A stretch of DNA of 60,448 nt. Origin: Candidatus Jordarchaeia archaeon (GTDB lineage Archaea; Asgardarchaeota; Jordiarchaeia; Jordiarchaeales; Jordiarchaeaceae). The DNA is taken from contig JAHQXB010000079.1 in the NCBI GenBank assembly GCA_029856435.1, positions 1-60,448 of the forward strand, in the 5' to 3' direction. Numbering within the stretch: the stretch's first letter is position 1; each line of letters begins with the position of its first letter. Of this stretch, positions 5,414 to 43,190 are shown one piece after another. The translations under genes were made by a program, and so were the position numbers. The notes under the pieces were generated by a model that saw only the letters and a program-made list of their open reading frames with translations, was not told where the DNA came from and made no database searches.

Positions 5414-7606
5414 TTATGTTATTCCCGCGGCGAAATTTCTGGCTATTTCCTCGTATTTTTCAAGTTGCCCTCTAGGTAGAGGTTTAACCCTCTCTAAAGC
5501 TTTTTCGAAGTGTCTCTTTTTAATTGTGTATTTTTTGAAATCCTCGGTTTTTTCATCTATCTGGTTACTCATAATGTACTCTCTTATCGCTATCATAATA
5601 GTCTCATTACAGACGGCGGCAAGATCTGCTCCAGTATAACCTTCTGTTCTCTCCGCCAATTCATTTAAGTCTACCTTTTTGTCCAGAGGACTCTTAGCCG
5701 TGTGAATCCTTAAAATCTCCTTTCTGGCCTCTTTATCCGGAACCGGAATATAAATTATGCGATCAAATCTGCCCGGACGCAGTAGCGCGGGGTCCACAAT
5801 GTCGGGCCTGTTAGTTGCAGCTACGACAACCACATCGTGAAGTTCCTCCAATCCATCCATCTCGGTGAGAATCTGACTTATCACCCTTTCAGAGACATGA
5901 GAATCACCGTAACCAGCCCCACGAACTGGGGCAATCGCATCAATCTCATCAAAGAATATGATGCAGGGTGCAGACTGTCTAGCTTTCCTGAAAGTTTCCC
6001 TAACAGTTTTCTCGCTTTCACCAACATACTTGCTGAAAAACTCCGGTCCCTTAACTGAAATGAAGTTTGCTTGGCTCTCATTTGCCAAAGCTTTTACCAG
6101 CAGGGTCTTGCCGGTTCCGGGTGCACCATGGAGGAATATTCCCTTCGGAGGTTTGGCGCCCATGTAGTTGAAGAATTTACCATATTTAAGTGGCCACTCA
6201 ACAGTTTCTATTAATTCCTGTTTTGCCTCTTGGAGGCCACCGACATCATCCCACCTCACATTTGGGACTTCTATTAGAACTTCCCTCATTGCTGAAGGTT
6301 CAATATTTCTCAGAGCATTGGTAAAGTCCTGCATATTCACCTCTATTTTGTTGAGTACTTCCGCGGGTAGACTCTCTGTTTCTAAATCTATTTCGGGCAA
6401 GATCCTTCTTATAGCAAGCATTGCAGCCTCTTTACATAAAGCTTCAATGTCTGCCCCAACGAAACCATGAGTATATTCTGCTAGAAACCTTATATCCACA
6501 TCGTCTGCAAGAGGCATCCCTCTTGTGTGTATTTGTAATATTTCCAGTCTCGCTTGCTTGTTAGGTATCCCAAACTCAATTTCTCTATCAAAACGCCCAC
6601 CGCGCCTCAGAGCAGGGTCAAGAGCGTTAGGCCGATTAGAAGCACCTATAACTACAAGTTCCCCTCTAGATTGTATTCCGTCCATTAGTGCTAGAAGCTG
6701 GGCAACGACTCTCCGCTCCACTTCTCCAGTGACTTCCTCTCTTTTGGGAGCTATACTATCCAGCTCATCTATAAAGATTATAGCAGGAGCATTCCTCTCC
6801 GCCTCTCGAAATATTTCCCTCAGTCGTCCCTCACTCTCTCCGTAGAATTTGCTCATAATTTCGGGACCACTTATAGAAATAAAGTAGGCCTCGGTCTCGT
6901 TTGCCACCGCCCTCGCCAGAAGAGTTTTTCCCGTTCCCGGTGGCCCATGCAACAAGACGCCCTTTGGCGCAGAGATACCTAGTCTCTCAAATATCTCAGG
7001 GTGACGCAGAGGAAGTTCGATCATCTCGCGTACCCGCCTCACCTCCTCATGCAAACCACCAATATCTTCATATGCAACCTTACGCACCCTGCTATCTTTA
7101 ATCTCTTTAACCGGTTTGGAAATCATCTTAATCTCAGTTCCCTTATTTACGATTACCGCATCGCCCTTCGGCTTATATGACACCACAATTAAAAGAATCT
7201 TTTTGCCCATCAAGGATAGCTCTATATAATCCCCTGCAGTAAAGACCCGCCCATCAAGAATCTTTTTAAAATATTCTTCACCTTCGACTAGGCTGAGAGG
7301 TTCAGTAGGCGCCAGCTCAATTTTGGATGCTGGACATGCTTCAATTCTTCTTATACTTGCTTTATCATCAATTCCTACACCAGCATTTTTTCGGGTTGCA
7401 CTATCGATTCTAATAATCTGAGTCCCTCTATCTTCGGGATAACCATACCAAGAAAGAGCTGCGGTTCTCCTTCTACCAATAATCTCCACCGTGTCTCCAG
7501 TTGTAATGTTAAGTTTTTCGGCAATTGAGGGATCTATCCTAACGATTCCATGTCCCACATCCCGGGGCTTAGCTTCTGCTACACGAACCACCGCAGATCT
7601 CATCAA
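5414..7606 (-). CDS. cdc48: CDC48/VCP AAA+ ATPase
   Basis: N-domain plus two AAA modules ([13 protein letters not shown] and [13 protein letters not shown], with SRH motifs RFDR). Confidence 0.97.
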
Positions 7607-7735
7607 AAACCACCTTAGAGCTTCAAAACGCTCTTTATTTTAAACAGTTTTATGTGTACGTTGAATACGCGCCCACTTTAAACATTTTTCCTAAATATTA
7701 AAAATATAAAGCGTTTGGTCAAGTATAACATATTT

Positions 7736-8686
7736 TTATTCGAATTCTATTGTTGCAGGAGGTTTAGACGTGATGTCATAGAGAACCCTTGAAACTCCTG
7801 GAATTTCTGAAACTATACGGTTCCTCATTTTAAAAAGCAGCTCCCAAGGAATTCCAGTAGGTTCAGCAGTCATGGCATCTTTAGAATCCACCGCACGAAT
7901 AACTATAATGTTCCCGTAAGCTCTTGTTCCCTCCCCAGTTATTCCCGTAGCCTTATCGTTAAGTAGAACCGCAAAAACTTGGAATGAAGGGAGATTTTTA
8001 GATTCTTCCTCAACAATTCTTGTAGCTTTCCTAACCAACTCTACCTTCTCCGGGGTTACTTCGCCAATCACTCGAATAGAAAGTCCTGGTCCCGGAAAAG
8101 GTTTACGATTAATAATGCTATCGGGAAGGTTGAGTTCCTTAGCCACTTTTCGAACCTCTGGCTTATACAGTTCCTTTACTGGCTCAATAATTTTGAGACC
8201 GAATTTTTCTAGAGGGTTTATTCCTATCTGTTCGAGCACATTGTGCTGTGATTTCACACCTCTTACGGTTTCAACAACATCAGCGGCTATTGTTCCTTGA
8301 AGAAGAATTTTAACGCCCAGTTCCCGGGCGATGTTGGCAAGAGAGTTATAGAAGGCTTGTCGGAAGGCTTTTCTCTTTTCTTCTGGATCAGTTAGATTCT
8401 TCATGGCCTGGAAAAAGTTTTTCTTAACATCATAGATCTCTATTTCAATGCCCATATCTTTGAAGATTTTAGTTACCGCCTCTGGCTCTCCTTCACGCAT
8501 CAATCCATCATCCAAGAAAACAACCGTTAATTTGCTCTTAAGAGCTTTAAAAGCGAGAACCGCAGTAACCGAACTGTCTACCCCACCCGAGACTGCCACT
8601 ATAGCCTTTTCACCACCTACTTCCCGCCTAATCCATTCCACCTTTTCGCTGATAAATTCTTTCGCATCAAACATAAATACCACCAA
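7736..8686 (-). CDS. guaAB: GMP synthase subunit B (ATP pyrophosphatase)
   Basis: SGGVDS PP-loop, QGTIAAD..KSQHNV, PFPGPGL and the C-terminus YDITSKPPATIEFE. Confidence 0.93.
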   Translation of the reverse strand: MVVFMFDAKEFISEKVEWIRREVGGEKAIVAVSGGVDSSVTAVLAFKALKSKLTVVFLDDGLMREGEPEAVTKIFKDMGIEIEIYDVKKNFFQAMKNLTDPEEKRKAFRQAFYNSLANIARELGVKILLQGTIAADVVETVRGVKSQHNVLEQIGINPLEKFGLKIIEPVKELYKPEVRKVAKELNLPDSIINRKPFPGPGLSIRVIGEVTPEKVELVRKATRIVEEESKNLPSFQVFAVLLNDKATGITGEGTRAYGNIIVIRAVDSKDAMTAEPTGIPWELLFKMRNRIVSEIPGVSRVLYDITSKPPATIEFE

Positions 8687-28420: not shown

Positions 28421-29854
28421 TTGGTAAATAAACTAGAGTTGGACTCTACGTTAGAGGCATTGAGGAGTTTTAGGGTTCGTGCCTTGTTCGGAGGAGAAAA
28501 AGAGATCATCGAGTGTGGAAAAATAACCCGTGAAGAATGGGAAAAACTCTTAGATTTCGTCGTGGACGATGAAACTGAGCGGAGGAAAGTTCTGTTAACT
28601 GTTAAGAAATTAGGCGGTGCATCGCTGCCTCAACTGGAAAAAGAGCTAGGAATGTCTAATTTTAGTATTCAAAAACATCTTCGGCTCTTGGAGTACGAAG
28701 GTTTAGTTGAGAAAAGCTCTGAGAGTGGTTCAGAAGCAGTTTATAAGCCTATTTTAAAAGAACCTTCAAGACCTCCTTTTGAAAAAATTAAATTTATTGT
28801 GGATGAGAAGCTCTGCGTGGACTGCGGAGCCTGCGTAAGTTATTGCCCAACAAACGCGATAACTATTGTTGATGAAGCCCCAGTAATTGATGAGGACAAA
28901 TGCATTGGGTGTGGTATTTGTAACAGTGTGGCTTGCCCCAGAACCTTCCTTTACCTAGATGTTTTGAGGCATTATGTAAAGGGTGAGCCTTGTAAACTTG
29001 ATCAGGAACCAATAGCGGGATATAAGAGCGCCCTTGCGGCGCAAACTATGAAGGAGGAAATAAGAAAAGTTTGCCAGGATGGAGGCATAGTAACATCAAT
29101 ATTGACCTATCTTTTTGATCACAACTTGATAGATGGGGCCCTAGTTGTTAAAAAGAGGGGGGAGAACTGGGCATCTGAGCCAGTAGTGGTGACTAATAAG
29201 GGGGAACTGCTTGAAACAGCGGGTACCAAGTATGTGGTTACTCCCACGCTGGTAGGATTGGAAAAGGCCAAAAAGATGGGGCTTAAAAAAATTGCTGTGG
29301 TGGGAACCCCTTGCCAGGTTCAAGCAGTAAGAAAGGCGCAGGTCTTTTCAAGTGCCTTCCAAGAAATTATGGGAAACATAGTGCTCATAATAGGGATATT
29401 CTGTATGGAAAATTTCTCCTACCAGAATATGAAAAAAATTGTTGAAGAATACTGCAAGGTGAATTTAGAAAACGCACGTAAAATGGACATCAACAAAGGC
29501 CAGTTCTCAGTACACATCAAAAGTGGCGAAAGATCTTCCGTACCAATCAAGGATATAACAGGTTTGGCAAGAACTGCTTGCCATGTGTGTCCAGACCTCA
29601 CCAATGAACTTGCAGACATCGCGGTGGGCTCTATAGGATCACCACCAAGTTGGTCAACTGTACTTATTAGAACAGAGAAAGGCGAAGAAATTTTCCAGAA
29701 AGCCCAGGAAGAGGGTTACTTGACCTCAAAACCGCTGGAGGAATCTGAAACGGGACTTCTACTGCTTATAAAACTTGCGAGAGGAAAAAGAAAGAGAAAC
29801 CTTGAGAAACTGGAATCCAAAAGAACAGAAGGAAAATATGCTACCCACTTCTAA
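28421..29854 (+). CDS. FrhB/FdhB-like F420-dependent oxidoreductase beta subunit with an N-terminal wHTH and 2x[4Fe-4S]
   Basis: HTH-like SLPQLEKELGMSNFSIQKHL..LEYEGLV; CVDCGACVSYCP and CIGCGICNSVACP; QDGGIVT, GTKY, GTPCQ, GIFCMENF and CHVCPD..ADI.VGS.GSP. Confidence 0.85.
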   Translation: MVNKLELDSTLEALRSFRVRALFGGEKEIIECGKITREEWEKLLDFVVDDETERRKVLLTVKKLGGASLPQLEKELGMSNFSIQKHLRLLEYEGLVEKSSESGSEAVYKPILKEPSRPPFEKIKFIVDEKLCVDCGACVSYCPTNAITIVDEAPVIDEDKCIGCGICNSVACPRTFLYLDVLRHYVKGEPCKLDQEPIAGYKSALAAQTMKEEIRKVCQDGGIVTSILTYLFDHNLIDGALVVKKRGENWASEPVVVTNKGELLETAGTKYVVTPTLVGLEKAKKMGLKKIAVVGTPCQVQAVRKAQVFSSAFQEIMGNIVLIIGIFCMENFSYQNMKKIVEEYCKVNLENARKMDINKGQFSVHIKSGERSSVPIKDITGLARTACHVCPDLTNELADIAVGSIGSPPSWSTVLIRTEKGEEIFQKAQEEGYLTSKPLEESETGLLLLIKLARGKRKRNLEKLESKRTEGKYATHF

Positions 29855-29899: not shown

Positions 29900-31171
29900 C
29901 TACTTTGTTTCTATTTCAAATTCGCAGTAATCATTTCCCATAGCCATACACTTTGTTTCTTTGCAGATCCATTCTTTATTTGTAATCACTTGAAGGATGC
30001 CCACAAGAGCACCCCCAACAAAGGTGCAAACTGGCCTATCAGAATGGTTATAAGATAGTGCGATTGTAGAAATGCCCTTTATTTTTAATTTGCCAGTATC
30101 AACACTTCCCTCAATTGATAGTACCCTACCCCACCCCGAAACAGTGTTATATTTAAAGACTTCGAACAGGGGGTTTTTGTTATCTTTTAGCGACTCGGAT
30201 TTTATGAGAAGAGCCGCTCCACGCCCTACCTGCTTACCCAATTCGAGGAGGATTCTCTTGGATTCTTCTGGGCTGTGTTGTTTTTCTATGGCTTTAATAA
30301 ATAGTATGAGGGTCTGTATTGGGGTTATAATGTGGTTCCAGCCGAGTATTGAAACCTGACCCAATTCGTTGAACGACATACTCTCCTTCAATTTAGTGAA
30401 GGAGTCATAAAGTGGGAAAAGAGTGACGAACTTGTCGGGAGTAAAAAGGTAGGCGAATCTTTGATTCAAAATTTTGTGCGCCTCTCTTATCAAGGGAGTT
30501 CTTGAAATGTGTACGTATGATTGCCTTTTTTCTTCAACAGTTTCGAAACTAAAGTTTATGGCATAGTCAATAATATGAGTCAGGGTGCTAGTTACCTGTG
30601 GTTCATGAACATCGCGGTTTACTATCCCCAAGAATATTCCTCCATCGCCCTTAGCGTCGAGGGTTAATTTTCTGATCATTCTCAAAACAGTTTTTGAATC
30701 AAAGTCGATAATTGAGGAGCTTATATTGGCGTAAATTACAAGTATTGGAACATCCGGAAATTTTTGCTTAAGCCGAGATTTCGCCTCTTTTATTTCGTAA
30801 ATTATTCTCTTCGGCTCATTCGCTATCTCCCTAATATTCCTAACTTCATCATAAACTACTTTGGTTTTATTTTCGCTTGAAACCAAATCTAAAAAGTAGA
30901 AGCGGTCTTCCTGAATAGCCCTTTGAAAAATTGTATTCATTTTCTCTGAGAAATTCTTCTTAATTTGTCTATTAATTATTTCGAAGGGCAAATTTGTGTG
31001 GATCGTTATAACAGCTCCGCCTTTCCCCAAAAAATTTAAAGCTATTAGGGCCGCAAGTCTATTGGCATCGTTAAGTGTGAAGGAGTCCGACGTTACCAGA
31101 ATTGACAGGCCACTATATAGACGGCCTAATGTACTATCAATGTAATCAATTTCGGTTTTACGAATCTTCAA
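29900..31171 (-). CDS. Degenerate KaiC/RecA-like domain + C-terminal V4R domain (paralog 4)
   Basis: IDYIDSTLG.LYSG start with no Walker A; C-terminal VCTFVGG.L.GIL..W.CKE.KC.AMG..YCEF. Confidence 0.7.
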   Translation of the reverse strand: MKIRKTEIDYIDSTLGRLYSGLSILVTSDSFTLNDANRLAALIALNFLGKGGAVITIHTNLPFEIINRQIKKNFSEKMNTIFQRAIQEDRFYFLDLVSSENKTKVVYDEVRNIREIANEPKRIIYEIKEAKSRLKQKFPDVPILVIYANISSSIIDFDSKTVLRMIRKLTLDAKGDGGIFLGIVNRDVHEPQVTSTLTHIIDYAINFSFETVEEKRQSYVHISRTPLIREAHKILNQRFAYLFTPDKFVTLFPLYDSFTKLKESMSFNELGQVSILGWNHIITPIQTLILFIKAIEKQHSPEESKRILLELGKQVGRGAALLIKSESLKDNKNPLFEVFKYNTVSGWGRVLSIEGSVDTGKLKIKGISTIALSYNHSDRPVCTFVGGALVGILQVITNKEWICKETKCMAMGNDYCEFEIETK

Positions 31172-31265
31172 CTTTTCTCCCGACCTTCAAATTCTTAATG
31201 ATTATGTTAACGCTGTATAGCTTTCTCGGTATGCATTAGTGGTATATGTGTTGAATGCTGAATTT

Positions 31266-32540
31266 TTAAGGGGGCTGTTCAATTTTTGCCTCAAATACAC
31301 ACCATTCATCTCCCCTTGCTATGCAATGAGTTTCATTACAAATCCACTTCTTCCCTGTAACTCCTTCTAAAATGCCAGCCAAAATGCTTCCAACTAACAC
31401 GCAAACTTTGCGATTGGATTTGCCATAGTAGTAGGATAGCGTCATGAAATTGTAAATCTTAAATTCTCCAGATTCTGGGCTTCCCTCCCTCTTGATTAGT
31501 CTTCCCCATCCTCGAATCAAGAAGTAATTAAGCGCTTCCCTCAGCAAATAACTCCCTTCTAAACCATACCTTGATTTGAAGAGATTTGTGACCTCCAAAC
31601 CCAACTTTCTACCAAAACTCTCCATAAATTTTTCATATTCATTTATCCCCAAAGTCTTTTCAAGTTCTTTAAACAATAATAGGAATGTACTCAGGGGAGT
31701 GATCAAAAACTCCCTATCATGAATTAAAATTTTTCCCTCCTCATAGGAAATACTTCTCTTAAAATCGTCAAAAACCGGAGCCAAAGCGGGAAGCTTCACG
31801 AAAGTATCATTGTAAAAAATATAAGCGTACCTCTGGTAGATATTAGGTGAGCCTGGCTCCAAAACTGGAGACTTTAATACGCGAATGTAGGGCTGTTTTA
31901 AGCCTCCCCCTTCTTCGGATCTGAGTTCTACTACAAAATCAGCCAAGTGTATCAGCGTATTTAGTGTCAGAGCATCGTGAATGTCGCGATTAACTAGTCC
32001 CGTGATAATGTCTCCCCATCGCTTCACATTTGCAGTTAACTTTCTAAACATTTTTAACACAGTTTTTGAGCCAAAATCAAGAATAGACGAGCTAAAATTT
32101 TGGTACAAAATTATGAGAGGTGTCTCTGGCAAAACATTTTTAATTTTTTCTCTCAAGTGACTGACTTCAAACAGAATCCTGTCAGGGTCATTTTCAATTC
32201 TGAATACGCCCTTTAAACTACTCGAACCTTTGTGAAAAACATTGTTTGGCGTTGTATCGAGATAATAACATTTGCCTTCATTAAAGGCCTGCCAAATAAA
32301 ATTAATATCCTCTGGCGAAAACCTTGTTTGAATATCTTCATTTATCATAGAGGATGGCAAACTTGTTCCTAACACGATACCCCCTCCTCCTTGTTTAAGG
32401 AAATTTATGCCAACAAGAAGGTTGAGAGTTATAGCATCATTTAAAGTGAACGAATCGCATATAAACAAAATTGAAGTGCCGCCAAATAACGCGCCTAGGT
32501 GCGCATCTATGAATTTCACTAAGGTTTTTTCAATCCTCAA
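31266..32540 (-). CDS. Degenerate KaiC/RecA-like domain + V4R (paralog 3)
   Basis: Same architecture; VCVLVGS.L.GILE..W.CNE.HC.ARG..WCVF. Confidence 0.7.
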   Translation of the reverse strand: MRIEKTLVKFIDAHLGALFGGTSILFICDSFTLNDAITLNLLVGINFLKQGGGGIVLGTSLPSSMINEDIQTRFSPEDINFIWQAFNEGKCYYLDTTPNNVFHKGSSSLKGVFRIENDPDRILFEVSHLREKIKNVLPETPLIILYQNFSSSILDFGSKTVLKMFRKLTANVKRWGDIITGLVNRDIHDALTLNTLIHLADFVVELRSEEGGGLKQPYIRVLKSPVLEPGSPNIYQRYAYIFYNDTFVKLPALAPVFDDFKRSISYEEGKILIHDREFLITPLSTFLLLFKELEKTLGINEYEKFMESFGRKLGLEVTNLFKSRYGLEGSYLLREALNYFLIRGWGRLIKREGSPESGEFKIYNFMTLSYYYGKSNRKVCVLVGSILAGILEGVTGKKWICNETHCIARGDEWCVFEAKIEQPP

Positions 32541-32589
32541 ACCTTATCCCTCATTTTATAACTTTTAACCTCTTGAAAGACGTATGGTT

Positions 32590-33867
32590 TTAAGCCACAA
32601 GTTTTAATTCGAATTTACACCTACTATTTCCCTTGGCGATACACTCTTTTTCATCGCAAGTCCAGTTCCGTAGGGAGATTTCTTCTAAGATTCCCTGTAG
32701 AACGCCACCTTCAATTATACAGACGGGATAATCAGATTTTCCATAATGGGCAGCAAAGTTAGAATAGCCTTCAACTATTATGCGTCCGGATTTAAGGCTT
32801 CCTTCGTAAATGTTAAATTTGCCCCAACCAGTAATTGAGAGGTGGTTTATTGCAGCTTTAAAAAGTTCTTTGTCAGTTAGCTTGAATCGGGAAGACAGGA
32901 TCTTTAAAATATGTGACCCTATAAGCCTGCCTACATTTTTTACTATTTTTGTATATTCGCTTCTTCCCAGTTTTTTCTCAATTTCTTTTAGGAGAATTGT
33001 GAAGGTGGGCATCTCTGCAATAATGTAATTTGTGTCGTAGGCTATTACTTCCCCTCTTTCAAGATAGGAGATGCTTGCCTTCAACTCTTCAAAGGATGTA
33101 GGAATAGTAGGGAGAATGTAAAAAGTGTCCTCGAAAAGTTCATATGTGAATTTTTTGTATAATATTTTCTTATTATCCACGGATAGGGGTGTTCTAGTTA
33201 CAGACACGTAGGGTTGCTTTTTGCCTTCGATAAGATCTACCCCAAATTCAAGTATATAATCAGCTAAGTGGGCGAGAGAATTAGCCACGCTCAGTTCTTG
33301 CATATCCCGATTAAAGATTCCCAGAAACAAATCACCATGTATTTTAACGTCTAATATCAATTTTCTTATCATACTTAAAACGACTCCTGGTTCAAAATCT
33401 AAAATCAGGTAGCTGATATTTGATTGCAAAATGAGAACTGGGGCATCTGAAAAATTCTTAATTTTATTTCTTGCATTTAGAATTTCATATAAAATTCTGT
33501 TGAGGTCGTTTACAACAGGCGTAACATACTCTGAATGATTAAGAGTAAAGTTACTAATATTATCCTCCAGCACAATGTTAATATAGTGTAATCTACCCTC
33601 ATTTGTCGCCTCTTGTAGAACGCGTCTTACTTCCGGAGAGCTGAAATATAATACATCTTTTATTGCCCAAGAGAAGGGCAAGTTTTCATAGACAAAAACG
33701 CAACCTCCACCATTTTTCAAAATATTTAACGCCACCAGGCTTGCCAATTTTTGAGCATCATTTGCAGTGTTTGAATCCGCTGAGAACAATATTGGAAAAC
33801 CCTGGTAAAGAACGCCCAGAGACTGATCTAGAAACTCTATTCCAATTTTTTTAATTTTCAAATCCAC
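32590..33867 (-). CDS. Degenerate KaiC/RecA-like domain + V4R (paralog 2)
   Basis: IEFLDQSLG start; VCIIEGG.LQGILE..W.CDEKEC.AKG..RCKF. Confidence 0.7.
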   Translation of the reverse strand: MDLKIKKIGIEFLDQSLGVLYQGFPILFSADSNTANDAQKLASLVALNILKNGGGCVFVYENLPFSWAIKDVLYFSSPEVRRVLQEATNEGRLHYINIVLEDNISNFTLNHSEYVTPVVNDLNRILYEILNARNKIKNFSDAPVLILQSNISYLILDFEPGVVLSMIRKLILDVKIHGDLFLGIFNRDMQELSVANSLAHLADYILEFGVDLIEGKKQPYVSVTRTPLSVDNKKILYKKFTYELFEDTFYILPTIPTSFEELKASISYLERGEVIAYDTNYIIAEMPTFTILLKEIEKKLGRSEYTKIVKNVGRLIGSHILKILSSRFKLTDKELFKAAINHLSITGWGKFNIYEGSLKSGRIIVEGYSNFAAHYGKSDYPVCIIEGGVLQGILEEISLRNWTCDEKECIAKGNSRCKFELKLVA

Positions 33868-33920
33868 CCCACCTTAAAGACGAAAAATTGAGAATCTATA
33901 AAAATTTATTCTTGCCTAAA

Positions 33921-35204
33921 TCATATTTGGGTCAATTCAAATTCACAATAATTATCGCCCATAGCAATGCACCTTATCTCTTTACTTGTCCACTTTTTTC
34001 CGGTAATTTCTTGAACTGCTCCCAGTAAACTGCCTTCGATTAATAAGTCCACAGGCTTGTCTGATTTGCCCCACAATTCAGCTAAAGAGGAGTGAACTCT
34101 GACTTTTAGAGTACCGGATTCTAAGCTTCCCTCAATGTTTAGCACTCTGCCGTAGCCTCTAGCACCGACATACATTAGAGTTGAATGCAAAAGGCGATCC
34201 TCTTTAAGATTAAACTCTGATTCGACAATTCTAACGCTCTTAGCCCCGAAATCTTTACCAAGCTCCATAACAATGTTTCTATAGCCATCATAGTCTATAC
34301 TTTTTTCAAAATTTAATAGAAGACTCGCTAGAAGTTGGGTGGGAAGCACGAGGTGTTTCGTTCCCAGTATTGAAATTTCACCATTTTGATAAAAAACTTG
34401 TCCGTCTTCCAACTCGTCTAGATAGAAAGATGCTGGTGAAAAGGTTTCAAACTTGTTTCCAGAAATGTGGTAAGCAATTTTTTTGTGCAAAAGCTTCCTA
34501 GCAAATCCAACTAAGGGTGTCTTAGACACTTGCAAATAGGGACGAGGTAAGTCTTCTTTAAACTCTAATCCAAACTCCATAGTATAGTTTGAAAAATGTT
34601 TCAGAGTACTTGTTATTTCCAGCTCATGAATATCCCTGTTTAACACACCAATGAAAATACCCCCGTTCTGCTTTATGTTTGATATCAATTTTTTAAACAT
34701 ATTTAAGGCAGCCTTGGAATCGAAATCAACCATAGTAGAGCTAATATTATGATACAAGAGAATAACTGGGCTTTCGGGAAAACTTGCTCTCATTTTTTCC
34801 ATCGCGCGATTAGCTTCATATAATATTCTATCTATATCATTCCTAACAAGTACCAGCCCCACCAAACCCTCAAAATTTTCACCAGAAGGAAATTTGTCAG
34901 ACACAAGATCCAAATACGTGAAACGCCCCTCATCCATCGCCTTTGTTAAAGCATGGTACTTATCAGGCAGAAACATATGCTTAAATTTTTTCGCGGCCAA
35001 ACTGTGGGGCTCATCCGTTTGAACAGCAACACAGGACAATCCCTGATCCATTAGATTAAAGGCCGCCAACATGCTGAGTAGCAAGGCATCATTTAACGTA
35101 GCAGAGTCAGCTATGAAGAGTAATACCTGACCTCCAGAAACGCCTCCCAGAGAAAAGTCTACAACCGGAATCCTAGTTTCAAACTCCAAAACCCAATCCC
35201 TCAA
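33921..35204 (-). CDS. Degenerate KaiC/RecA-like domain + V4R (paralog 1)
   Basis: IPVVDFSLGG start; V4R lacks two Cys (PVDLL, WTSKE) but keeps C.AMG..YCEF. Confidence 0.7.
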   Translation of the reverse strand: MRDWVLEFETRIPVVDFSLGGVSGGQVLLFIADSATLNDALLLSMLAAFNLMDQGLSCVAVQTDEPHSLAAKKFKHMFLPDKYHALTKAMDEGRFTYLDLVSDKFPSGENFEGLVGLVLVRNDIDRILYEANRAMEKMRASFPESPVILLYHNISSTMVDFDSKAALNMFKKLISNIKQNGGIFIGVLNRDIHELEITSTLKHFSNYTMEFGLEFKEDLPRPYLQVSKTPLVGFARKLLHKKIAYHISGNKFETFSPASFYLDELEDGQVFYQNGEISILGTKHLVLPTQLLASLLLNFEKSIDYDGYRNIVMELGKDFGAKSVRIVESEFNLKEDRLLHSTLMYVGARGYGRVLNIEGSLESGTLKVRVHSSLAELWGKSDKPVDLLIEGSLLGAVQEITGKKWTSKEIRCIAMGDNYCEFELTQI

Positions 35205-35363: not shown

Positions 35364-36524
35364 TTAATTTTTGGTAGGTTTTATTTTGATTCTTTTGGTT
35401 ATAACGTTTCCTTCGTTGTCTTCGAAGGACATTTGGAAACTTTGAACATTCTTTTCACGCAACTCATAGTTGAGTTCCACTTCTTTTCCCGTCGGCAACC
35501 TTTTTATTCCCAGCATATAAGGTGCTGTTTCGAATAGCTCCTCCTTTATGCCAACCACTTTAATGGTAACGCCCTTAAGCTCCTGTTTCGTATTGTTTGT
35601 CACATGTATGACTAGTTTCTCTTTTTCTTTTTGTTCCACCGAAACCTCTATTGATTGTGGTAACAGTTTCCCTTTTAATATATTCTGGGCTTTTGCCTCT
35701 TCAAACAACCCCGCCTCTTCCATGGGAGGTAATACAATGTTTATCGGTATCTGGAACTTAATACTTTCACCAGTAACCTTTATACATGTAATATCAAGGT
35801 ACCAGTGGGAGTAAGCGCCAAATGTCTGAGACCACTGAGTTCTTTCGGTGGGCTCCCAGAAGTAGTTATAGCTGTGTTCAGCGTACTGCGGCACCCTGAT
35901 GGATAAGTAGCCCCGCGTAGGATTTTTTTCCTCAACAGTGGTCAAAATCTCTGGAGGATTCTTTTTAATGTGGACGCAAACCTTTGCATATTTGGGACAG
36001 GAACAACTAATATTTGAGTCATTAACCAAGTCTACGGTTAATAGTTTTAATCCCTCAGTCTTATAATTCAGTTTAATTACTTCACCAGGTTGAACAGCGT
36101 CCTTTTCGATGTTAAAGCTCATCCCCTTAATAGTAAGAGAAACAGGATTAGGCTCAAATCTCTGTTCCGACCTTATTTTGATGGGTTTCTCTGAAACAAT
36201 CTTGAACGCCTCACCATACCTATCTAGTTTCCCCACAGAAAGGGAAGCCCTAATGAGGTAGTGGACATTTTTTCGTATAAGGGTGGGAACCGCCCTTCTG
36301 CTTACAGAGAGCTCACGTTCTCTAACATAAGTTCCACTCTCAAGAAAGCCCTCACAGAATACCTCACTTGAAGATAAGGGAAGCTCGTTTCCACAGGGCA
36401 AGTTAGTGAGAAGAGTAACTCCACCCCACCAAACCTTTGTATCCTCAGCTAGGTCAAACTTGGTTACTGTTCTTATGGAAGAACCAGCCACTGCAAAATC
36501 TCTTGCGCGTAACTCTATCGACAT
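35364..36524 (-). CDS. Arrestin/Vps26-fold-like protein with a C-terminal beta module
   Basis: Two beta-rich lobes (GTY..E.EL.V...VPT...VHYLIRA and IEKDAVQPGEVI...LSIRVP...WYLDI), a CxC-x6-CxH insert and the shared C-terminal module. Confidence 0.5.
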   Translation of the reverse strand: MSIELRARDFAVAGSSIRTVTKFDLAEDTKVWWGGVTLLTNLPCGNELPLSSSEVFCEGFLESGTYVRERELSVSRRAVPTLIRKNVHYLIRASLSVGKLDRYGEAFKIVSEKPIKIRSEQRFEPNPVSLTIKGMSFNIEKDAVQPGEVIKLNYKTEGLKLLTVDLVNDSNISCSCPKYAKVCVHIKKNPPEILTTVEEKNPTRGYLSIRVPQYAEHSYNYFWEPTERTQWSQTFGAYSHWYLDITCIKVTGESIKFQIPINIVLPPMEEAGLFEEAKAQNILKGKLLPQSIEVSVEQKEKEKLVIHVTNNTKQELKGVTIKVVGIKEELFETAPYMLGIKRLPTGKEVELNYELREKNVQSFQMSFEDNEGNVITKRIKIKPTKN

Positions 36525-36565
36525 TAGTAACTACCCTAAATTTTGAATTATTTGTTTCCCCCATA

Positions 36566-37480
36566 CTAGCCTTCAGCGTGAGCTCTAACCACAAGATCAG
36601 CGAACATGGACATGTCAGAAAGCAATGTATCAATCTTCTCCTGAGCTTTTTTATCCAATTCCTGAGTCTTCATTATCAACACTGCGATTATGAATTTGAA
36701 CACATGAAGCGAAATCTCCTTACCACCATCCAGTCCCCGTCCAGTGAATTCCGCCGATTCAGACATAAAGAAGTTTTCCCTCAAATTATTACAAGCACTT
36801 ATGAAATCCCTCAGGTCTCCCCTCAGCTGTAATCCCGTACTAACTCCCTGAACATTATGCACAATCACATTACCCGAGGTGTCGCTAATAATGATTCTGG
36901 CGGGAATTTCACTTAACTGTTTCTGGGCAGTTTCAACATGCTTCTCCAGAGACTTGTAACTCGCAACCAATATGTCCCGAAATATTTCAGCGAGTCTCTC
37001 CTGCTCATAAATGGAAGTCACATGAAAAGTAGGATTCCACCTAGAGAACAAATCTAGGAATATACTCTTAGCCTTTTCAAGATTCGTATCAAGAAGCTCC
37101 TTAACATAATCCTTCAGATCATACTTGTGGAAGAAAATGTGCACCGCTGGCTTAATATTATTCTTTGTGAACAGGTCTATAATCTGTTTAAAGTACTCCT
37201 TCGCAGCATCGAAACTTTCAGGCTCATGAAGATCCACAACTGGAATCAAAACATCCGTACCCTGAAACACCTTAGGGTCACTAATATAAGATTCTCTGTA
37301 CTGCTCCTGACCACCAAAGTCAAAAATGGAAACCTCCAAGCCCAAAAAGGGATGCCTCCTAATCTCATACATAATAGTTGGAGCTGCGCCCACAGTCTGT
37401 TCAGGTTTTTTGCCAGCGAACGTTGTCAGATATATACTAGTTTTCCCACATCCTGAAAGTCCAACCAATGAGATTTTCAA
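36566..37480 (-). CDS. Rag/Gtr-type small GTPase with a C-terminal roadblock/longin-like domain
   Basis: GLSGCGKT (G1), PT (G2), DFGGQ (G3), HKYD (G4) and TSIYE (G5). HKxD and TSI are Rag-family hallmarks; ~120-aa alpha/beta C-domain. Confidence 0.8.
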   Translation of the reverse strand: MKISLVGLSGCGKTSIYLTTFAGKKPEQTVGAAPTIMYEIRRHPFLGLEVSIFDFGGQEQYRESYISDPKVFQGTDVLIPVVDLHEPESFDAAKEYFKQIIDLFTKNNIKPAVHIFFHKYDLKDYVKELLDTNLEKAKSIFLDLFSRWNPTFHVTSIYEQERLAEIFRDILVASYKSLEKHVETAQKQLSEIPARIIISDTSGNVIVHNVQGVSTGLQLRGDLRDFISACNNLRENFFMSESAEFTGRGLDGGKEISLHVFKFIIAVLIMKTQELDKKAQEKIDTLLSDMSMFADLVVRAHAEG

Positions 37481-37531
37481 GATTCTCTAACCTCCGCAAA
37501 GACTAAGAATCAAATAACTATTTAACATTTA

Positions 37532-39049
37532 TTATTCCGTTTTCTTACTCTCACCCAACTTTTTACCCTCGATTTCCTTTACACTAAGTTTCTGAGACAG
37601 AATAGTTCCCTGTCTATCAGAAATAGTCAACAAGTATTCCCTATCATCCTTAACCCGAGGATAACAAAATTCAAGCTCATCAAAAGGATACCATGTCTCA
37701 ATCTCAGTCTCCCAAGCGTTACTCTCAAACAAATCCTCCAAATGGGCAATCCTCACCTTAATATCATTTATGGGTTTCCCCGAATTATTCGCTAAAGTTA
37801 TCTGAAGCATAGTCCCACCATCAACAAACCGAGCATCCGAAACCTTCAGCAACTTCTGAAGAGCACGCTCAGTTATACCTGCCTTTGCCTCTGCTTTCTC
37901 CTCAACCAAAGGTATTGCCCCCCGCCGTTCCAAAGGTTCAGGAACCCCAGCCACTGTCGGAACATATTTCAAAACATAGGTTTGGCGTCTCCTCTCAGTG
38001 TACATTTGCACCTTCTTCAACCTCGCTAGATTCAACACCTTCTGCAAACCATCCCTATCCAAAGGCTGCAAAGTTAAATAACCATCCTCCATAGCATCCT
38101 CAAGAAGTTCATTAGCCACACCACTACGCACCAGAATAGTTGAATACCCATCAGGAGACCCAACACTCCCCACAGAGATGTCAGCCAACTCCGAAGTAAG
38201 ATCCCTACAATAATGACAACTTGTCGAACGATACTTATCAAGATCCTTTACCGGCCAACCAGCAGTCTTGTCACCATCATAAATTATGTTAAATTTGCCA
38301 GCAGATATGCTCATTTTACTGATGGAACTTAAAGGTATTCCCTGCTTCACCTCAAAGAACTCCTTCAAACCATCATGATAGAAGGAGTCCATACAGAACA
38401 GCCCCACCTTTAATATCTTCACCTTCATAAACAAGTGGAGCAAACCGAAAGGCTGCATCTGCATCTTAGCCACCGCATCTATATTACAAGGAGTACCCAC
38501 AAAAGCAATGGAACGATACCCCTTATCAATCGCCTCAACCAAAGCCTCAACAGTCCTACTGTGAGAATAAACACTACCAGAAGACTTTAAAATATCCTCA
38601 GAACTCGTAGCTATCTTTGCAACGGGCTTCCAAGGCTCCCTCTCATCCTTCTGAGTAACTATAGCCGCATCTATCAAACCATGATCCATAGCATACAATA
38701 GGAGGGAGGTTACAACCCCACCATCCTGACCCTTAACCTTATCTATCGCTGATTTGCCAACAAAAGCCGCGATGTAATCTCCAATCAAGGACTTCAGAGA
38801 AGTTATGGTTCTGGGACACGCACGGTAGCATATGCCACAAGCGCTGCATTTTCCAACTAATTTGGGTGTTTCGTCTTCCATCACGAGAGCCTTCTCGGGA
38901 CAAACTGAGACACAGGTGCAGCATGCTGTACAGACGCCGCTTCTTATAACTTCTTGATTTAGGCGTCCAAAGTTTTCAAGTTTTTTCACTTTTAAGAGTC
39001 TTTCGGGAAACGTGTAGCTTACGTATCCTTTTTCCTCCTCGTTTAACAT
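37532..39049 (-). CDS. FrhB-like Fe-S/flavin protein fused to a C-terminal beta module
   Basis: CTACCTCVSVCP and CSACGICYRACP, QDGGVVT, GTPC, GLFCM, CHYCRD..ADISVGSVGSP; then a linker and an ~80-aa module shared with 35364-36524 and 41463-42509. Confidence 0.8.
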   Translation of the reverse strand: MLNEEEKGYVSYTFPERLLKVKKLENFGRLNQEVIRSGVCTACCTCVSVCPEKALVMEDETPKLVGKCSACGICYRACPRTITSLKSLIGDYIAAFVGKSAIDKVKGQDGGVVTSLLLYAMDHGLIDAAIVTQKDEREPWKPVAKIATSSEDILKSSGSVYSHSRTVEALVEAIDKGYRSIAFVGTPCNIDAVAKMQMQPFGLLHLFMKVKILKVGLFCMDSFYHDGLKEFFEVKQGIPLSSISKMSISAGKFNIIYDGDKTAGWPVKDLDKYRSTSCHYCRDLTSELADISVGSVGSPDGYSTILVRSGVANELLEDAMEDGYLTLQPLDRDGLQKVLNLARLKKVQMYTERRRQTYVLKYVPTVAGVPEPLERRGAIPLVEEKAEAKAGITERALQKLLKVSDARFVDGGTMLQITLANNSGKPINDIKVRIAHLEDLFESNAWETEIETWYPFDELEFCYPRVKDDREYLLTISDRQGTILSQKLSVKEIEGKKLGESKKTE

Positions 39050-39331
39050 TTACCTGTCTCCTTTCGCTTCAGTTTCTACAGTTTCTGGACGTAAGTCAGG
39101 TCTTCAAACAGTGTAGGGTTATAGTAGGTATCTTTCAATTTGTTCCAGAGTTATAGTTGGAATTATATTACCGTCAAGTATATAAATTTTTTAGAAGACC
39201 TTAGACTTACGTTCTATAATCTTGTGAGCTTCAATAGTACAGTTTTTTGCGTATTTAATACTTTTTCGATTGTGAAGAATTTTGAGAAAATTGTTGGTTT
39301 ATGACGAAAAGCGTCCATATTTCTTCCATTT

Positions 39332-41407
39332 TTACATTTTTTGAGTGGAATCCGATGGTTGTTCTTCTTTTGGGGGCCACTCAAAAATAACCACAGTTAA
39401 ACAGATGAGGAAGGGCATGAAGGATAAGAAAATCTGCAGGTACTGAGAGTTCCCAAAGGGAATAATTCCCACCATTAGAACTGTGGGGTTTAATTCAGAG
39501 CTTTGAACACATATCCTTTGGGCGTCAGAGATGGTCTGATAGCCTTGAGAGTCTATCGCGCAGGCATAAAATACTATGCTGTGATTGTTGAAATAGGAGG
39601 AATCTATGGTAAAGCTGTGACTGGGGGCTAGCATTGGCGTTGAATTGATAATTACTTTATGATAGTCTGTAACCACTATTTCTAGACTGATTATTCCTTG
39701 GGGGTCGCTGCAAGAGATGTTGATTGTAAATTGTTCTCCGGGGCTGATGCTTGTGGGGGCGTTGATGTTGAAGATGGTGGGTTTGTCTGGTGTAGAGCCT
39801 ACTTCTAGGATTGTGGTGTTATAGAGATGGTTGGGTTTGGTTACTGTGATATTATATTTGCCAGTTGTGGGCGCTGGGATTTTTATTCGGCCTTGAGAGT
39901 CGGTGAGGTAAGTGTGATAATATTCTGTTCCTTGTATGCATATTAGGGCGTTGCTCACTGGGCGTCCTCCGCTGTTTTGGATTCTAATCTGCATTATTTG
40001 GCCCGGTGTGGGTGTGTATTCTGGTAGAATGATGCTTAAGTTTTGCGGGATGTTGGTCCATATGGGGAGCTCTGGGTCTCCTAGTAGGATGTATTCAAAG
40101 AATTCCTGTCTGTATATGCTGTTTTCAGCCATTCTAAATAGGCCCACCTTCTGGTAGTACTCCTGTTTACTTTGGTATAGGGCATAGCCAGCGCGTTGGG
40201 AAAAAAGGCCGTCATCAGTGTGGAGGAGTATTTCAAAGAATAATGCGTCCAGAAGAGAATCTGATAAATCATTAATGTTGTCTCCACCATAACTTGTTCT
40301 GGTAGCTCCAATATAGGATATTGCTCCACCATCTGGGTTCTTTAACATAGCCTCACCTAAGCAATCCCCTGCATAGTCTAGACGTGCTGTTGAGCAGGCC
40401 GAAGCAAAAACTAGGGGCAACCTATAACTGTTATTTGAACTCGAAGCATAAGTGGAGTCATAGTAACTGCCGGAGCTTTCAGATCGGTAAACTGAAGTGG
40501 GGGAACCGTGCGAGCATAGGTTGACTATTGCGCATCCATTGTTTATTGCATTTCTAAAATTGTCTAAAGTTAAATTGGTATAACTGCGGATGGAGTCGTA
40601 AAATAGAGTGGTAAAGTTCATGTTTAGATCTTTGGGGAAAATATAGTCTCGGATGTAGTTTTTGATTCGCCATCCCTGAATGTTTCCGCTCTGGCTTAGT
40701 TGGCCTCCCGCGAAAACAGCCATTTGCATCCAGTCCCCGATATAGTTGGCTATTTCTATTTCGTAGGTAAGTATCTTGTTTATCATGTCTTCAAGCTCGG
40801 TTATGTTTGAGGCTGGAAGTCTTCCAACGTATAGTTCTGGAATCCAATCTATCTCGCCAAATTCCCCGTATAACTCATTTCCATTATTGTCAAAGGTTCC
40901 ATTCAGAGCGGCGTAGTAATAGTCGCTTGGTACATTGTCCAGTCCAGTCCAAAAGTATCTTGTGGGAATTATGCTGACGTCGCCTGCCAGTAGGACCCAG
41001 CGAATATTCCACTGATTGTATGCGTCTATCAGAAAGTTGCGTAATTTTGATTGATTGTCGTTTCCGGGATAGTTTTCGTAGATGTAGGTTGTGTTGAATA
41101 TGGTTGCGGGTATTCCTTTTTGTGTTTTCCATTCCGCAAATTGGACTAGGTGGGGGTTGTTGGCCCATTCTGGGGGGGCTATTATTATGTACTGTGTGGT
41201 GTTTGTTTTAAGAATTAGTGGCGTGGGGATGTCTTGTATTTGTAGGGCTTGCTGGTTTTGTGAGATAACTGTGGGTATCCAAGTGTTGGGTGCGGGGAGG
41301 AGTAGAAGTGTGGCTCCTAGGGTTATCAGGAGTATTAGGAATCCAAGCTTTATGAGTGAATTTCTCAATGTGAACACTCCTATTTCTGGAAATGGGGGAA
41401 TCCTCAA
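39332..41407 (-). CDS. Secreted, membrane-anchored C25 (gingipain-family) cysteine peptidase
   Basis: N-terminal signal/TM; YIIIAP, VLLAGD..IIP, SDYYY, VGRLPA, catalytic HG (CSHGS) and SACS, LLGDP; Ig-like region and C-terminal TM helix. Confidence 0.85.
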   Translation of the reverse strand: MRIPPFPEIGVFTLRNSLIKLGFLILLITLGATLLLLPAPNTWIPTVISQNQQALQIQDIPTPLILKTNTTQYIIIAPPEWANNPHLVQFAEWKTQKGIPATIFNTTYIYENYPGNDNQSKLRNFLIDAYNQWNIRWVLLAGDVSIIPTRYFWTGLDNVPSDYYYAALNGTFDNNGNELYGEFGEIDWIPELYVGRLPASNITELEDMINKILTYEIEIANYIGDWMQMAVFAGGQLSQSGNIQGWRIKNYIRDYIFPKDLNMNFTTLFYDSIRSYTNLTLDNFRNAINNGCAIVNLCSHGSPTSVYRSESSGSYYDSTYASSSNNSYRLPLVFASACSTARLDYAGDCLGEAMLKNPDGGAISYIGATRTSYGGDNINDLSDSLLDALFFEILLHTDDGLFSQRAGYALYQSKQEYYQKVGLFRMAENSIYRQEFFEYILLGDPELPIWTNIPQNLSIILPEYTPTPGQIMQIRIQNSGGRPVSNALICIQGTEYYHTYLTDSQGRIKIPAPTTGKYNITVTKPNHLYNTTILEVGSTPDKPTIFNINAPTSISPGEQFTINISCSDPQGIISLEIVVTDYHKVIINSTPMLAPSHSFTIDSSYFNNHSIVFYACAIDSQGYQTISDAQRICVQSSELNPTVLMVGIIPFGNSQYLQIFLSFMPFLICLTVVIFEWPPKEEQPSDSTQKM

Positions 41408-41462
41408 CTAGTATAGTTTTTTATGATTTGGGGGTTGTTTCCCAAGATTTGTTTTTTGGGGT

Positions 41463-42509
41463 TTATTCCATTTCTTTTATTGAGATTCTTTTTACTAGTA
41501 GTTTGTTGGTTCGGTCTTCTATTTTTAGGATGTATTCGCCGTTGTTGTCGACTCGGGGATATTGGAATACTAGTTCTTCGTAGGGGAACCAGATTTCTAC
41601 TGTTGTGTCCCAGGAGTAGGTTTCAAAAAATTCTTCGATGTGAGCGATGGATATTTTTATGTTTTCCAGTCCTTTTTCAGAGTTGTTCTTGACGGTTATT
41701 TTTAGTTTTTTCTTGTTATCGGTGAATTCTACGCCCACCAGTTCTATGGGGCTTTCGGGAATGTGCTCGATGGCTCTGGTTTCTATGGCGCTTTTTCCGG
41801 ATAGCGGGACAGACCTGGTTTGGGGGCCACTTAAACCGTAAATGTTGCTGAGAAGGAAGTATATTAGGTTTCTCTGTTTCTCCACATCGCTCTGTAGGGC
41901 CTCCATTAATTCTGACGATATTATTGGTATGGATATCTCGCATATGTTCAGGAGATTATTTTCGATTTCTTCCCCTTCCTTAATAATTTTGTTATCTTCT
42001 TGGGTTCTTATAGGTTTGCAACGAGCCAAATCCTTCTCTATTAAGAGGTAAAGCTTGTCCTGCAAGCTCTCTCTGATTTTCTGAAGTATAACGCTGAGCA
42101 ACTTATCTCCTAAAGGTTTAGCTAAACCCACGGGTACACTGATTATGAGAACAAAAACCTCCTCTGTCTCAGGAGACATACCTGCCCTTTGTTTTTCCCT
42201 AGCTGACTTCGCCTTAAACTTCGTGGCGGCATAAACCTTCCCCCCAAACTCCAAATCCACGCGGTTCAGCCCCTCTTTGAAATCGTCTGCTCCCAGCCAC
42301 CAGACAGGATGCTTCTGAATAATTCTCAGCGTCTCCAAATCATTCTTAAGACTCTCTGGGCATGTAAATAGGGCAAGATGTCCTTTGGTTTCGTGAAAGT
42401 AGCACAGGTAAATGCCAATCAAACCCTCTAAAATATTTGGGTGTCGCTCTTCCTTCTTTTGTTGAAATTCTAGACCCTTAATTACATTATCATCCGAATT
42501 TTTAGACAT
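41463..42509 (-). CDS. uDENN/longin (NPRL2/FLCN-like) protein with a C-terminal beta module
   Basis: IYLCYFHETKGHLALFTCPE resembles the uDENN first hairpin (I....F....G..+.+..PE); Arg-rich loop KSAREKQRAG; shared C-terminal module. Start moved to MSKNS. Confidence 0.55.
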   Translation of the reverse strand: MSKNSDDNVIKGLEFQQKKEERHPNILEGLIGIYLCYFHETKGHLALFTCPESLKNDLETLRIIQKHPVWWLGADDFKEGLNRVDLEFGGKVYAATKFKAKSAREKQRAGMSPETEEVFVLIISVPVGLAKPLGDKLLSVILQKIRESLQDKLYLLIEKDLARCKPIRTQEDNKIIKEGEEIENNLLNICEISIPIISSELMEALQSDVEKQRNLIYFLLSNIYGLSGPQTRSVPLSGKSAIETRAIEHIPESPIELVGVEFTDNKKKLKITVKNNSEKGLENIKISIAHIEEFFETYSWDTTVEIWFPYEELVFQYPRVDNNGEYILKIEDRTNKLLVKRISIKEME

Positions 42510-42617
42510 CTTAACGCACCAGAGAGTCTGGTAAAACAGTAAAGGATTCATTTTTCAGAGCAATCTTAATCTCTCGGTTCAAGAGTAGAAGTTTGGAAGT
42601 TAGTTAATTAATTTTTC

Positions 42618-43190
42618 TTAAACTCTTTTTTCAGCTGTATCCTTAGGTTGTAACTGGATCTCGTAATACCGTGTGTATTTTTTGAATTGGTTAACCCATT
42701 TTTTACTAATGACGCCCACAATCTGTCCCTGTTTATTAACAACTCCGACCCGCTTCACTTTAGTTTTGTCAAAGAGGGCTCTTAACTCGTCCATAGAAAC
42801 GTCCTCGCTCACCGTTATGATATCTCTAACCATCACATCTCCCGCTTTATAAATTCGGGGATCCTTCTCCTTAGCCACCAAACGGAATATGACTCCATCT
42901 GTGATTATTCCAACAACCTTGTCGTTATCATCTTTTACGAATACTGAGCTTATCCAGTTATCCACCATTAGTTTTGCTACTTTGGGCAGGGAATCGTTGA
43001 CATGACAGGTTATCACGTCACGACTTGCGGCGTTGACTATTGAGAATTTTTCCTTATCTTCAGTTGACAATGTTTCCACCAAATTTTTATGAATCCATCT
43101 GTTGATACCTTTTTTGATTAGGCTTTTATACTTTTTTAATGTGCTAACAGGACTAAATTGTTCTTGTGTGTCTAGGGATGCAAAAGGCAC
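42618..43190 (-). CDS. CBS-domain pair protein
   Basis: VAKLMVDNWISSVFV...VVGIITDG..FR and VGVV...IVGVIS; start uncertain. Confidence 0.85.
   Translation of the reverse strand: MPFASLDTQEQFSPVSTLKKYKSLIKKGINRWIHKNLVETLSTEDKEKFSIVNAASRDVITCHVNDSLPKVAKLMVDNWISSVFVKDDNDKVVGIITDGVIFRLVAKEKDPRIYKAGDVMVRDIITVSEDVSMDELRALFDKTKVKRVGVVNKQGQIVGVISKKWVNQFKKYTRYYEIQLQPKDTAEKRV

Follow-up and report, generated by a model that had tools for sequence, protein, structure and literature searches.

A shared Ig-like C-terminal domain on three protein families encoded with a Rag-like GTPase in Asgard archaea

We analysed a 60,448-nucleotide contig of Candidatus Jordarchaeia archaeon (JAHQXB010000079.1, assembly GCA_029856435.1; hereafter the window), in which a run of genes on the minus strand encodes three proteins with unrelated bodies and a common C-terminal domain, here called the tail. 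Public names of close homologues likewise point to the Jordarchaeia/'Freyarchaeota' lineage of Asgard archaea. The three hosts are protein A (386 amino acids (aa), 35364–36524), with a putative arrestin/Vps26-like body at residues ~1–285; protein B (505 aa, 37532–39049), an FrhB-like flavoprotein; and protein C (348 aa, 41463–42509), a longin-fold protein. The tails are homologous, share an immunoglobulin (Ig)-like fold, are restricted to three host families and are older than the lineages that carry them. They are also co-inherited and linked with genes for a Rag/Gtr-like GTPase and for CBS-domain proteins. We propose, with a probability of about 0.5, that the tail is a shared docking domain that lets A, B and C engage one partner in a signalling module centred on the Rag GTPase.

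A common tail on three host families

The initial annotation of the window, made from its letters and open reading frames (ORFs), had described an unannotated Ig-like module capping three otherwise unrelated proteins, with 38 identities over 81 ungapped positions between the B and C tails and a looser version of the pattern in A. The ORFs of A, B and C, all on the minus strand, have the coordinates given there, and the identity count was reproduced exactly; none of 20,000 shuffles reached 38, the best shuffle giving 18. BLASTP aligned B with C at E = 1e-27, A with C at E = 7e-6 and A with B at E = 4e-5. The looser A tail also matches both others by profile, including profiles built without A: a C-family profile that contained no A sequence recovered the A tail in a genome-wide search at E = 2e-7, and an A-family profile matched the tails of C (2.1e-10) and of B (1.5e-6).

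Outside the tails, BLASTP produced no alignment among A, B and C, in keeping with the first description of the bodies as unrelated. A 146-aa BLAST alignment hinted at a linker shared by B and C, which we rejected: the two linkers alone do not align, and the shared unit is therefore the sandwich only. A six-frame scan of the whole 3.54-Mb assembly with a hidden Markov model (HMM) found exactly three copies of the module, in A (residues ~288–386; 35367–35663), B (residues 396–495; 37565–37864) and C (residues ~251–348; 41466–41759), each on the minus strand. All three copies are placed by BLASTP and by the HMM scan, that of A additionally by the C-family profile and that of B by a structural model.

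AlphaFold2, run with a 23-sequence alignment, predicted the ~95-aa module as a seven-strand Ig-like β-sandwich, with a predicted local distance difference test (pLDDT) score of 90.7 and a predicted template-modelling (pTM) score of 0.82. The exhaustive structural aligner VIA likened this sandwich to many Ig-like domains, tied at Z 9–10 with a maximum of 10.0 (85–97 residues aligned, root-mean-square deviation (rmsd) 1.9–3.2); the tied rows came from GH2 glycosidases, transglutaminases, Kir channels, cytokine-receptor Ig-like domains, the BBSome GAE domain and PDE-delta. A Foldseek search against the PDB returned nothing at E ≤ 1e-3, its top rows being archaeal pilin, FlaF, a GH3 FnIII-like domain and RhoGDI. 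Matches in the structure atlas had TM scores of 0.64–0.76; sequence identity to the structural matches was 4–18%, and no match stands out.

Pfam scans of 23 tails gave no family at the gathering threshold (CARDB, Big_1, FlgD_ig, CBM49, GAE_BBS1 and others), in line with the original description of the module as unannotated. Below threshold, eight members matched CBM49 (best E 0.015) and two matched FlgD_ig (best E 9.5e-4); on the B tail of the window CBM49 scored 14.8 bits against a cut-off of 23.4. Because no Pfam family passes its threshold and the structural matches are tied and generic, the module constitutes a new family at the sequence level, with a fold that is very common.

Among 62 non-redundant tails drawn from the three host types, every sequence has N25, 90% have F45 and 83% have E46. 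F45 and E46 open strand 4 directly after the hairpin turn, within the motif [E/D][E/D][L/F]-F-E between strands 3 and 4. Other conserved residues are specific to host type, namely G33, P49 and G53 in A tails and W50 and W57 in B and C tails. The full-length model of C has a stretch of 28 residues with pLDDT below 50 immediately before the module, as would be expected of a domain held on a flexible tether.

When a profile was run against 1.84 billion representative proteins, 109 cluster representatives matched at E ≤ 1e-3, and every match with a classifiable N-terminal body belonged to host family A, B or C (A-like, ~385–395 aa; FrhB-like, ~500 aa; C-like, ~335–357 aa). The others were short sequences, most of them truncated, and weak matches of partial coverage in giant secreted repeat proteins. 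The matches in the giant proteins, which fall in several stretches (E 6e-11 to 9e-4), were taken as generic Ig repeats. Among the short matches whose ends were inspected (n = 34, 65–267 aa), 11 had no start methionine and the others possibly have internal starts; they look like fragments, and a stand-alone form of the module is doubtful. The alternative raised at the outset, that the module is a common stand-alone domain scattered without synteny, does not fit its occurrence on three host families only, with synteny kept across several Asgard lineages.

Within the phylum, the module was present in 103 of 301 sampled genomes, usually in three copies. Its distribution follows families (numbered here with the prefix f): it was found in 5/5 genomes of f1, 5/5 of f2, 65/68 of f9, 21/21 of f21 and 3/3 of f13, and in none of the genomes of f7 (0/76), f5 (0/29) or f12 (0/19). 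The tail is kept on all three hosts in at least seven families.

In a tree of the tails, sequences grouped by host type and not by genome, with 96 for the A clade in the Shimodaira–Hasegawa-like approximate likelihood-ratio test (SH-aLRT) and 3 changes of host label against a shuffled mean of ~40. Since the tails cluster by host type, the tagging of the three hosts is ancient, older than the split of these lineages, and has been kept since. Concerted evolution, or recent exchange of tails within genomes, was rejected on the same clustering.

Linkage and co-inheritance with a Rag-like GTPase

The gene that sits between those of B and A (36566–37480, minus strand) encodes a Rag/Gtr-like GTPase of 304 aa, composed of a G domain and a C-terminal domain of ~120 aa. 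It matches the Pfam family Gtr1_RagA (PF04670) at E = 7.6e-20, with 71.8 bits against a cut-off of 22, and its C-terminal 124 aa, the part that forms a roadblock domain in Rag/Gtr GTPases, have no Pfam match. Conservation is unusually high, with 61–64% identity between Jordarchaeial and Lokiarchaeial-type genomes. Rag/Gtr GTPases pair as heterodimers of two paralogues; here most genomes have one orthologue at E ≤ 1e-70. Orthologues occur in the same families as the module with the exception of f13 (3/3 for the module, 0/3 for the GTPase), and no family that lacks the module was found to have one; this count of co-distribution, for which seven candidates per genome were scored, is a lower bound.

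Gene order is also conserved. The sequence FrhB with tail, Rag, A with tail, with C with tail and a CBS gene adjoining or nearby, recurs at seven loci in other assemblies. One assembly has the order CBS, a C::CBS fusion, FrhB, Rag, A; two have FrhB, Rag, A, C, CBS; and a fourth has TPR, CBS, C, CBS, FrhB, Rag, A. At three further loci the FrhB gene with tail adjoins Rag, and an A gene with tail follows 1.7–5.4 kb downstream in two of the three, with none detected in the third. The FrhB–Rag–A set is thus kept in several Asgard lineages beyond the genus, and the neighbourhood seen in the window represents conserved synteny.

Possible functions of the tail

Because three proteins co-inherited with one GTPase share a tethered domain and a conserved hairpin, a common docking domain fits these observations best. 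The leading candidate for the partner of the tail is the single-copy Rag/Gtr-like GTPase, which the initial annotation did not name as a hub, and the likely contact would be the exposed acidic–aromatic hairpin, [E/D][E/D][L/F]-F-E, between strands 3 and 4. In such an arrangement the longin protein C would act as a regulator of the GTPase-activating protein (GAP) type, the FrhB-like protein B would provide a redox input and the arrestin-like protein A would serve as an adaptor.

We infer that the tail binds a protein and that this protein is the GTPase. Complex predictions of two GTPase copies with the B tail gave values of the interface score ipSAE (interaction prediction score from aligned errors) of 0.63, 0.60 and 0.60, against 0.02 for the best of three controls; the runs share at least 65% of their contacts, with partner pLDDT at least 76, and the outcome was classed as weak support. 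Of 80 solved complexes, 58 attained the ipSAE mark, compared with 2 of 110 mismatched pairs; at ≤0.60, only 7 of these 80 attained it, together with both passing mismatches.

Several observations weigh against docking on the GTPase. The score of the predicted complex falls in a band in which a pass, unless the pairing was likely beforehand, is wrong in more cases than it is right. The fold itself is uninformative on function, its matches being generic Ig-like domains. Linkage of the C gene is loose in Lokiarchaeial-type genomes, where C genes lie 13–60 kb from the FrhB–Rag pair. The remaining points come from the f13 lineage, represented by three genomes that are 94–97% complete, two of them single contigs. 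In these genomes no GTPase orthologue, A body or C body was found, and the gene for FrhB with tail adjoins that of a TrmB regulator (locus L008, 6444–8030, genome G012; locus L011, genome G023; P0082). The f13 tail matches the profile at E ~1e-14, like the tails of other lineages, in genomes without the GTPase. The domain therefore retains some GTPase-independent use or a stability role, and its persistence counts against the GTPase as the only partner of the tail. The lineage is also evidence that the tail does not need the other two hosts in order to persist.

The same lineage provides a pointer in the other direction. In its three tails, from two genomes and a database representative, the F-E hairpin has been replaced by E-A-P-S/K, with N25 and the fold signal kept. 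Loss of the hairpin alongside the missing partners suggests docking of the tail on the GTPase; the contrast is suggestive only, because it reflects a single evolutionary event.

A fuller version of the docking proposal can be put forward only tentatively, and taken as a whole it is unlikely. It would make the tail an archaeal GTPase-docking Ig domain, by which the FrhB-like redox enzyme B, an arrestin adaptor and a GAP-type longin, paired with a CBS energy sensor, all plug into one Rag GTPase through the F-E hairpin. The Rag nutrient hub would then have had a prokaryotic forerunner, one that reads redox and adenylate state and not amino acids.

The tails might instead bind each other, homotypically or heterotypically, and so build a hetero-oligomer of A, B and C, in line with the docking or oligomerisation tag proposed in the initial annotation; the GTPase would then be a client and not the docking site. 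We give this minority possibility the most room among the alternatives to docking. The domain is found on exactly three co-inherited proteins, usually once on each per genome, and the conservation of N25, F45 and E46 in all host types would fit a symmetric contact; the lone FrhB with tail of f13 could still self-associate. However, the conserved residues specific to host type, listed above, indicate that the tails are not interchangeable, and f13 keeps the tail yet has lost the hairpin that would make the contact.

It is improbable that the sandwich binds a lipid, membrane or envelope component and thereby places the three proteins at one site, in the manner of PDE-delta, RhoGDI and UNC119. 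RhoGDI, UNC119 and PDE-delta recur among the Foldseek rows (E 2e-4 to 1e-3, with RhoGDI at about 2e-4 to 3e-3; TM by target 0.3–0.45), and VIA aligned the module with 1ksg_B, from an Arl2–PDE-delta entry, at Z 9.2 (rmsd 2.9, 90 residues aligned; best row, Z 10.0). Yet the PDE-delta and RhoGDI rows are tied with those of GH2, transglutaminase, Kir and cytokine-receptor Ig-like domains, which argues for a generic likeness, and Asgard small GTPases are reported to be without terminal cysteines for lipid modification (PMC10933270).

The tail might also be a stabilising or spacer domain that reached the neighbouring genes through local duplication, with no common function or shared partner. This would accord with the frequency of Ig-like domains as passive modules, with the adjacency of the genes, which favours local duplication, and with the persistence of the tail on FrhB alone in f13. 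A passive domain is quite unlikely, however, given the conservation of the tail on three hosts in at least seven families, with motifs shared across host types, the lack of any other host family among 1.84 billion sequences, and the restriction of hairpin loss to the lineage in which the other members of the set were not found.

Host proteins, related systems and neighbouring genes

Of the three host labels in the initial annotation, FrhB-like is upheld by Pfam. Protein B contains a 2x[4Fe-4S] ferredoxin domain, FrhB_FdhB_N (E = 1.1e-22), FrhB_FdhB_C (E = 1.2e-42), a linker and the tail. The N-terminal ferredoxin domain has eight cysteines, Pfam also gave Fer4 matches, and all Fe–S motifs are visible; by these sequence features B is firmly an FrhB/FdhB-type iron–sulfur flavoprotein. 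It shares both FrhB/FdhB domains and the N-terminal ferredoxin domain with the F420- or ferredoxin-reactive flavoproteins of this family, and differs from them in its C-terminal tail and in adjoining a GTPase, not hydrogenase, formate dehydrogenase or Hdr partners. The window encodes a second FrhB protein (28421–29854, plus strand, 477 aa), with a winged-helix-like N-terminal region and a ferredoxin domain; it has no tail and so offers an internal contrast to B.

The longin fold assigned to C also stands, although its structural matches to GAP-complex longins are tied with those to longins of the SNARE type. C comprises a longin domain (residues ~30–150), a helical region to ~223, a disordered linker (224–251) and the tail; homologues place its start at 42509, as initially annotated, and not at 42551, the start of a longer ORF. 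The model (pLDDT 79) has the topology β-β-α-β-β-β-α of a longin. VIA aligned it with chain H of the lysosomal folliculin complex (6nzd_H; Z 10.8, rmsd 3.1, 143 residues) and chain B of the GATOR1 complex (8fw5_B; Z 10.1, 140 residues), in a tie with Sec22 (3egd_C; Z 10.4) and a Lokiarchaeal longin (8yqg_B; Z 10.0). Pfam scans of 30 C-family members gave nothing at E ≤ 1, including no match to NPR2 or Folliculin, and a sequence search against PDB chains yielded nothing usable for C or A, whether singly or as family profiles. A weak feature-space lead points from C to a cluster with NPR2 in 19% of its members. The label NPRL2-like is thus reasonable for the modelled fold of C, and not as a statement of family membership.

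In GAP-type longins, strand 2 begins with a Gly-Pro (GP) motif (PMC12290439). Across the 30 C-family members, G43 is nearly invariant at this position, and the residue after it is mostly His, with Pro in one. The family consensus also includes S-x-R-x-K-x-R-x-G, a basic stretch in the loop that joins strands 4 and 5, which could be a candidate site for an arginine finger.

Upstream of C in the window lies a gene for a CBS-pair protein (190 aa, 42618–43190, minus strand; Pfam CBS, E = 1.6e-20), and CBS genes flank C in other lineages. Some genomes encode C::CBS fusions of 631–641 aa with the CBS part after the tail (locus L001, 7839–9734; P0052, named as a CBS protein). In these fusions the tail is therefore internal and the link between C and CBS is physical. 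Some Lokiarchaeial-type genomes have tandem C paralogues, each with its own tail. At locus L010 (G143:C16) two adjacent C-type longin genes (6483–7493 and 7595–8665), 43% identical and with their own tails, are followed by a gene for a GNAT acetyltransferase. By analogy with NPRL2–NPRL3 or FLCN–FNIP, these two longins might possibly form a heterodimer.

For protein A the label arrestin-like comes down to leads. A has no Pfam family; its language-model neighbours fall in arrestin/Vps26 clusters (score 0.92; the best 10 of 10 in one clan), and Arrestin_C appears below threshold in 8 of 20 A-family members (best E 3.4e-5). Cys 44, 174, 176 and 183 are invariant in the 20 family members, with weak SWIM-like matches, and may form a zinc site within the arrestin-like body.

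The arrangement recalls the eukaryotic Rag/Gtr GTPases with their longin-containing regulators, GATOR1/SEACIT (NPRL2–NPRL3–DEPDC5) and FLCN–FNIP. In both, a Gtr1/RagA GTPase is linked to a longin protein; the best structural matches of the C longin are in folliculin and GATOR1 entries, and the near-invariant Gly of the C family sits where GAP longins have their GP motif, the Pro of which is mostly replaced by His in C. The eukaryotic system uses a RagA/RagC-type pair and the archaeal cluster one GTPase; the window encodes a single longin protein, tandem paralogues being confined to some Lokiarchaeial genomes. DEPDC5, Ragulator and TOR are not present in the archaeal cluster. Conversely, the eukaryotic GAP complexes are without the shared Ig-like tail, and one of the archaeal partners is a redox enzyme. 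Among Ig-like domains, the GH2, transglutaminase, CARDB/NPCBM-associated, BBSome GAE and PDE-delta/RhoGDI domains have the seven-strand sandwich in common with the module, which is set apart by N25, the F45–E46 hairpin signature and its narrow host range.

NPRL2-like longins, Rag-like GTPases and arrestin-like proteins are known separately in Asgard archaea, from inventories of eukaryotic signature proteins (Liu et al., bioRxiv 10.1101/2020.10.19.343400; Tran et al., PMC10933270; PMC12290439). These inventories treat the same kinds of protein in the same phylum, without this cluster, the FrhB link or the shared tail, and our literature search found no description of any of the three. Working groupings of Asgard Rag-, longin- and arrestin-like proteins are hard to read from genomes, where the genes are rarely in operons. 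In MK-D1, GTPase genes as a rule do not share operons with genes for roadblock, longin or TRAPPC3 proteins (PMC10933270), which makes the conserved FrhB–Rag–A–C neighbourhood a useful exception. Two features identify the members of this cluster: their gene linkage and a shared domain of their own. The GTPase partners of GAP-like Asgard longins are a question raised in PMC12290439, and the cluster offers a concrete partner set of one GTPase, a candidate GAP longin, a CBS sensor, an arrestin-fold adaptor and a redox enzyme. If the tail does dock on the GTPase, it would reveal the wiring of an archaeal Rag switch and tie that switch to redox or energy metabolism, with a bearing on the origin of the eukaryotic nutrient-sensing hub.

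The minus-strand run in the window has intergenic gaps of 41–282 bp. Between B and C it includes a gene for a membrane-anchored peptidase C25 of the gingipain family (39332–41407, minus strand, 691 aa; Pfam E = 5.9e-68), with hydrophobic segments at the N and C termini and Ig-like domains. The peptidase appears to be a lineage-specific insertion, since it is missing from this position in the other loci examined. The spacing between the B and C tails is identical within the genus and similar in some genomes of the sister family. Directly downstream of A lie four tandem paralogues of 423–427 aa (29900–35204, minus strand). We considered these KaiC-like/V4R proteins as a conserved common partner of the tailed proteins and rejected them, as they are missing from the cluster neighbourhoods of other lineages; the paralogue that was scanned has a V4R domain at its C-terminal end (Pfam E = 6.3e-11).

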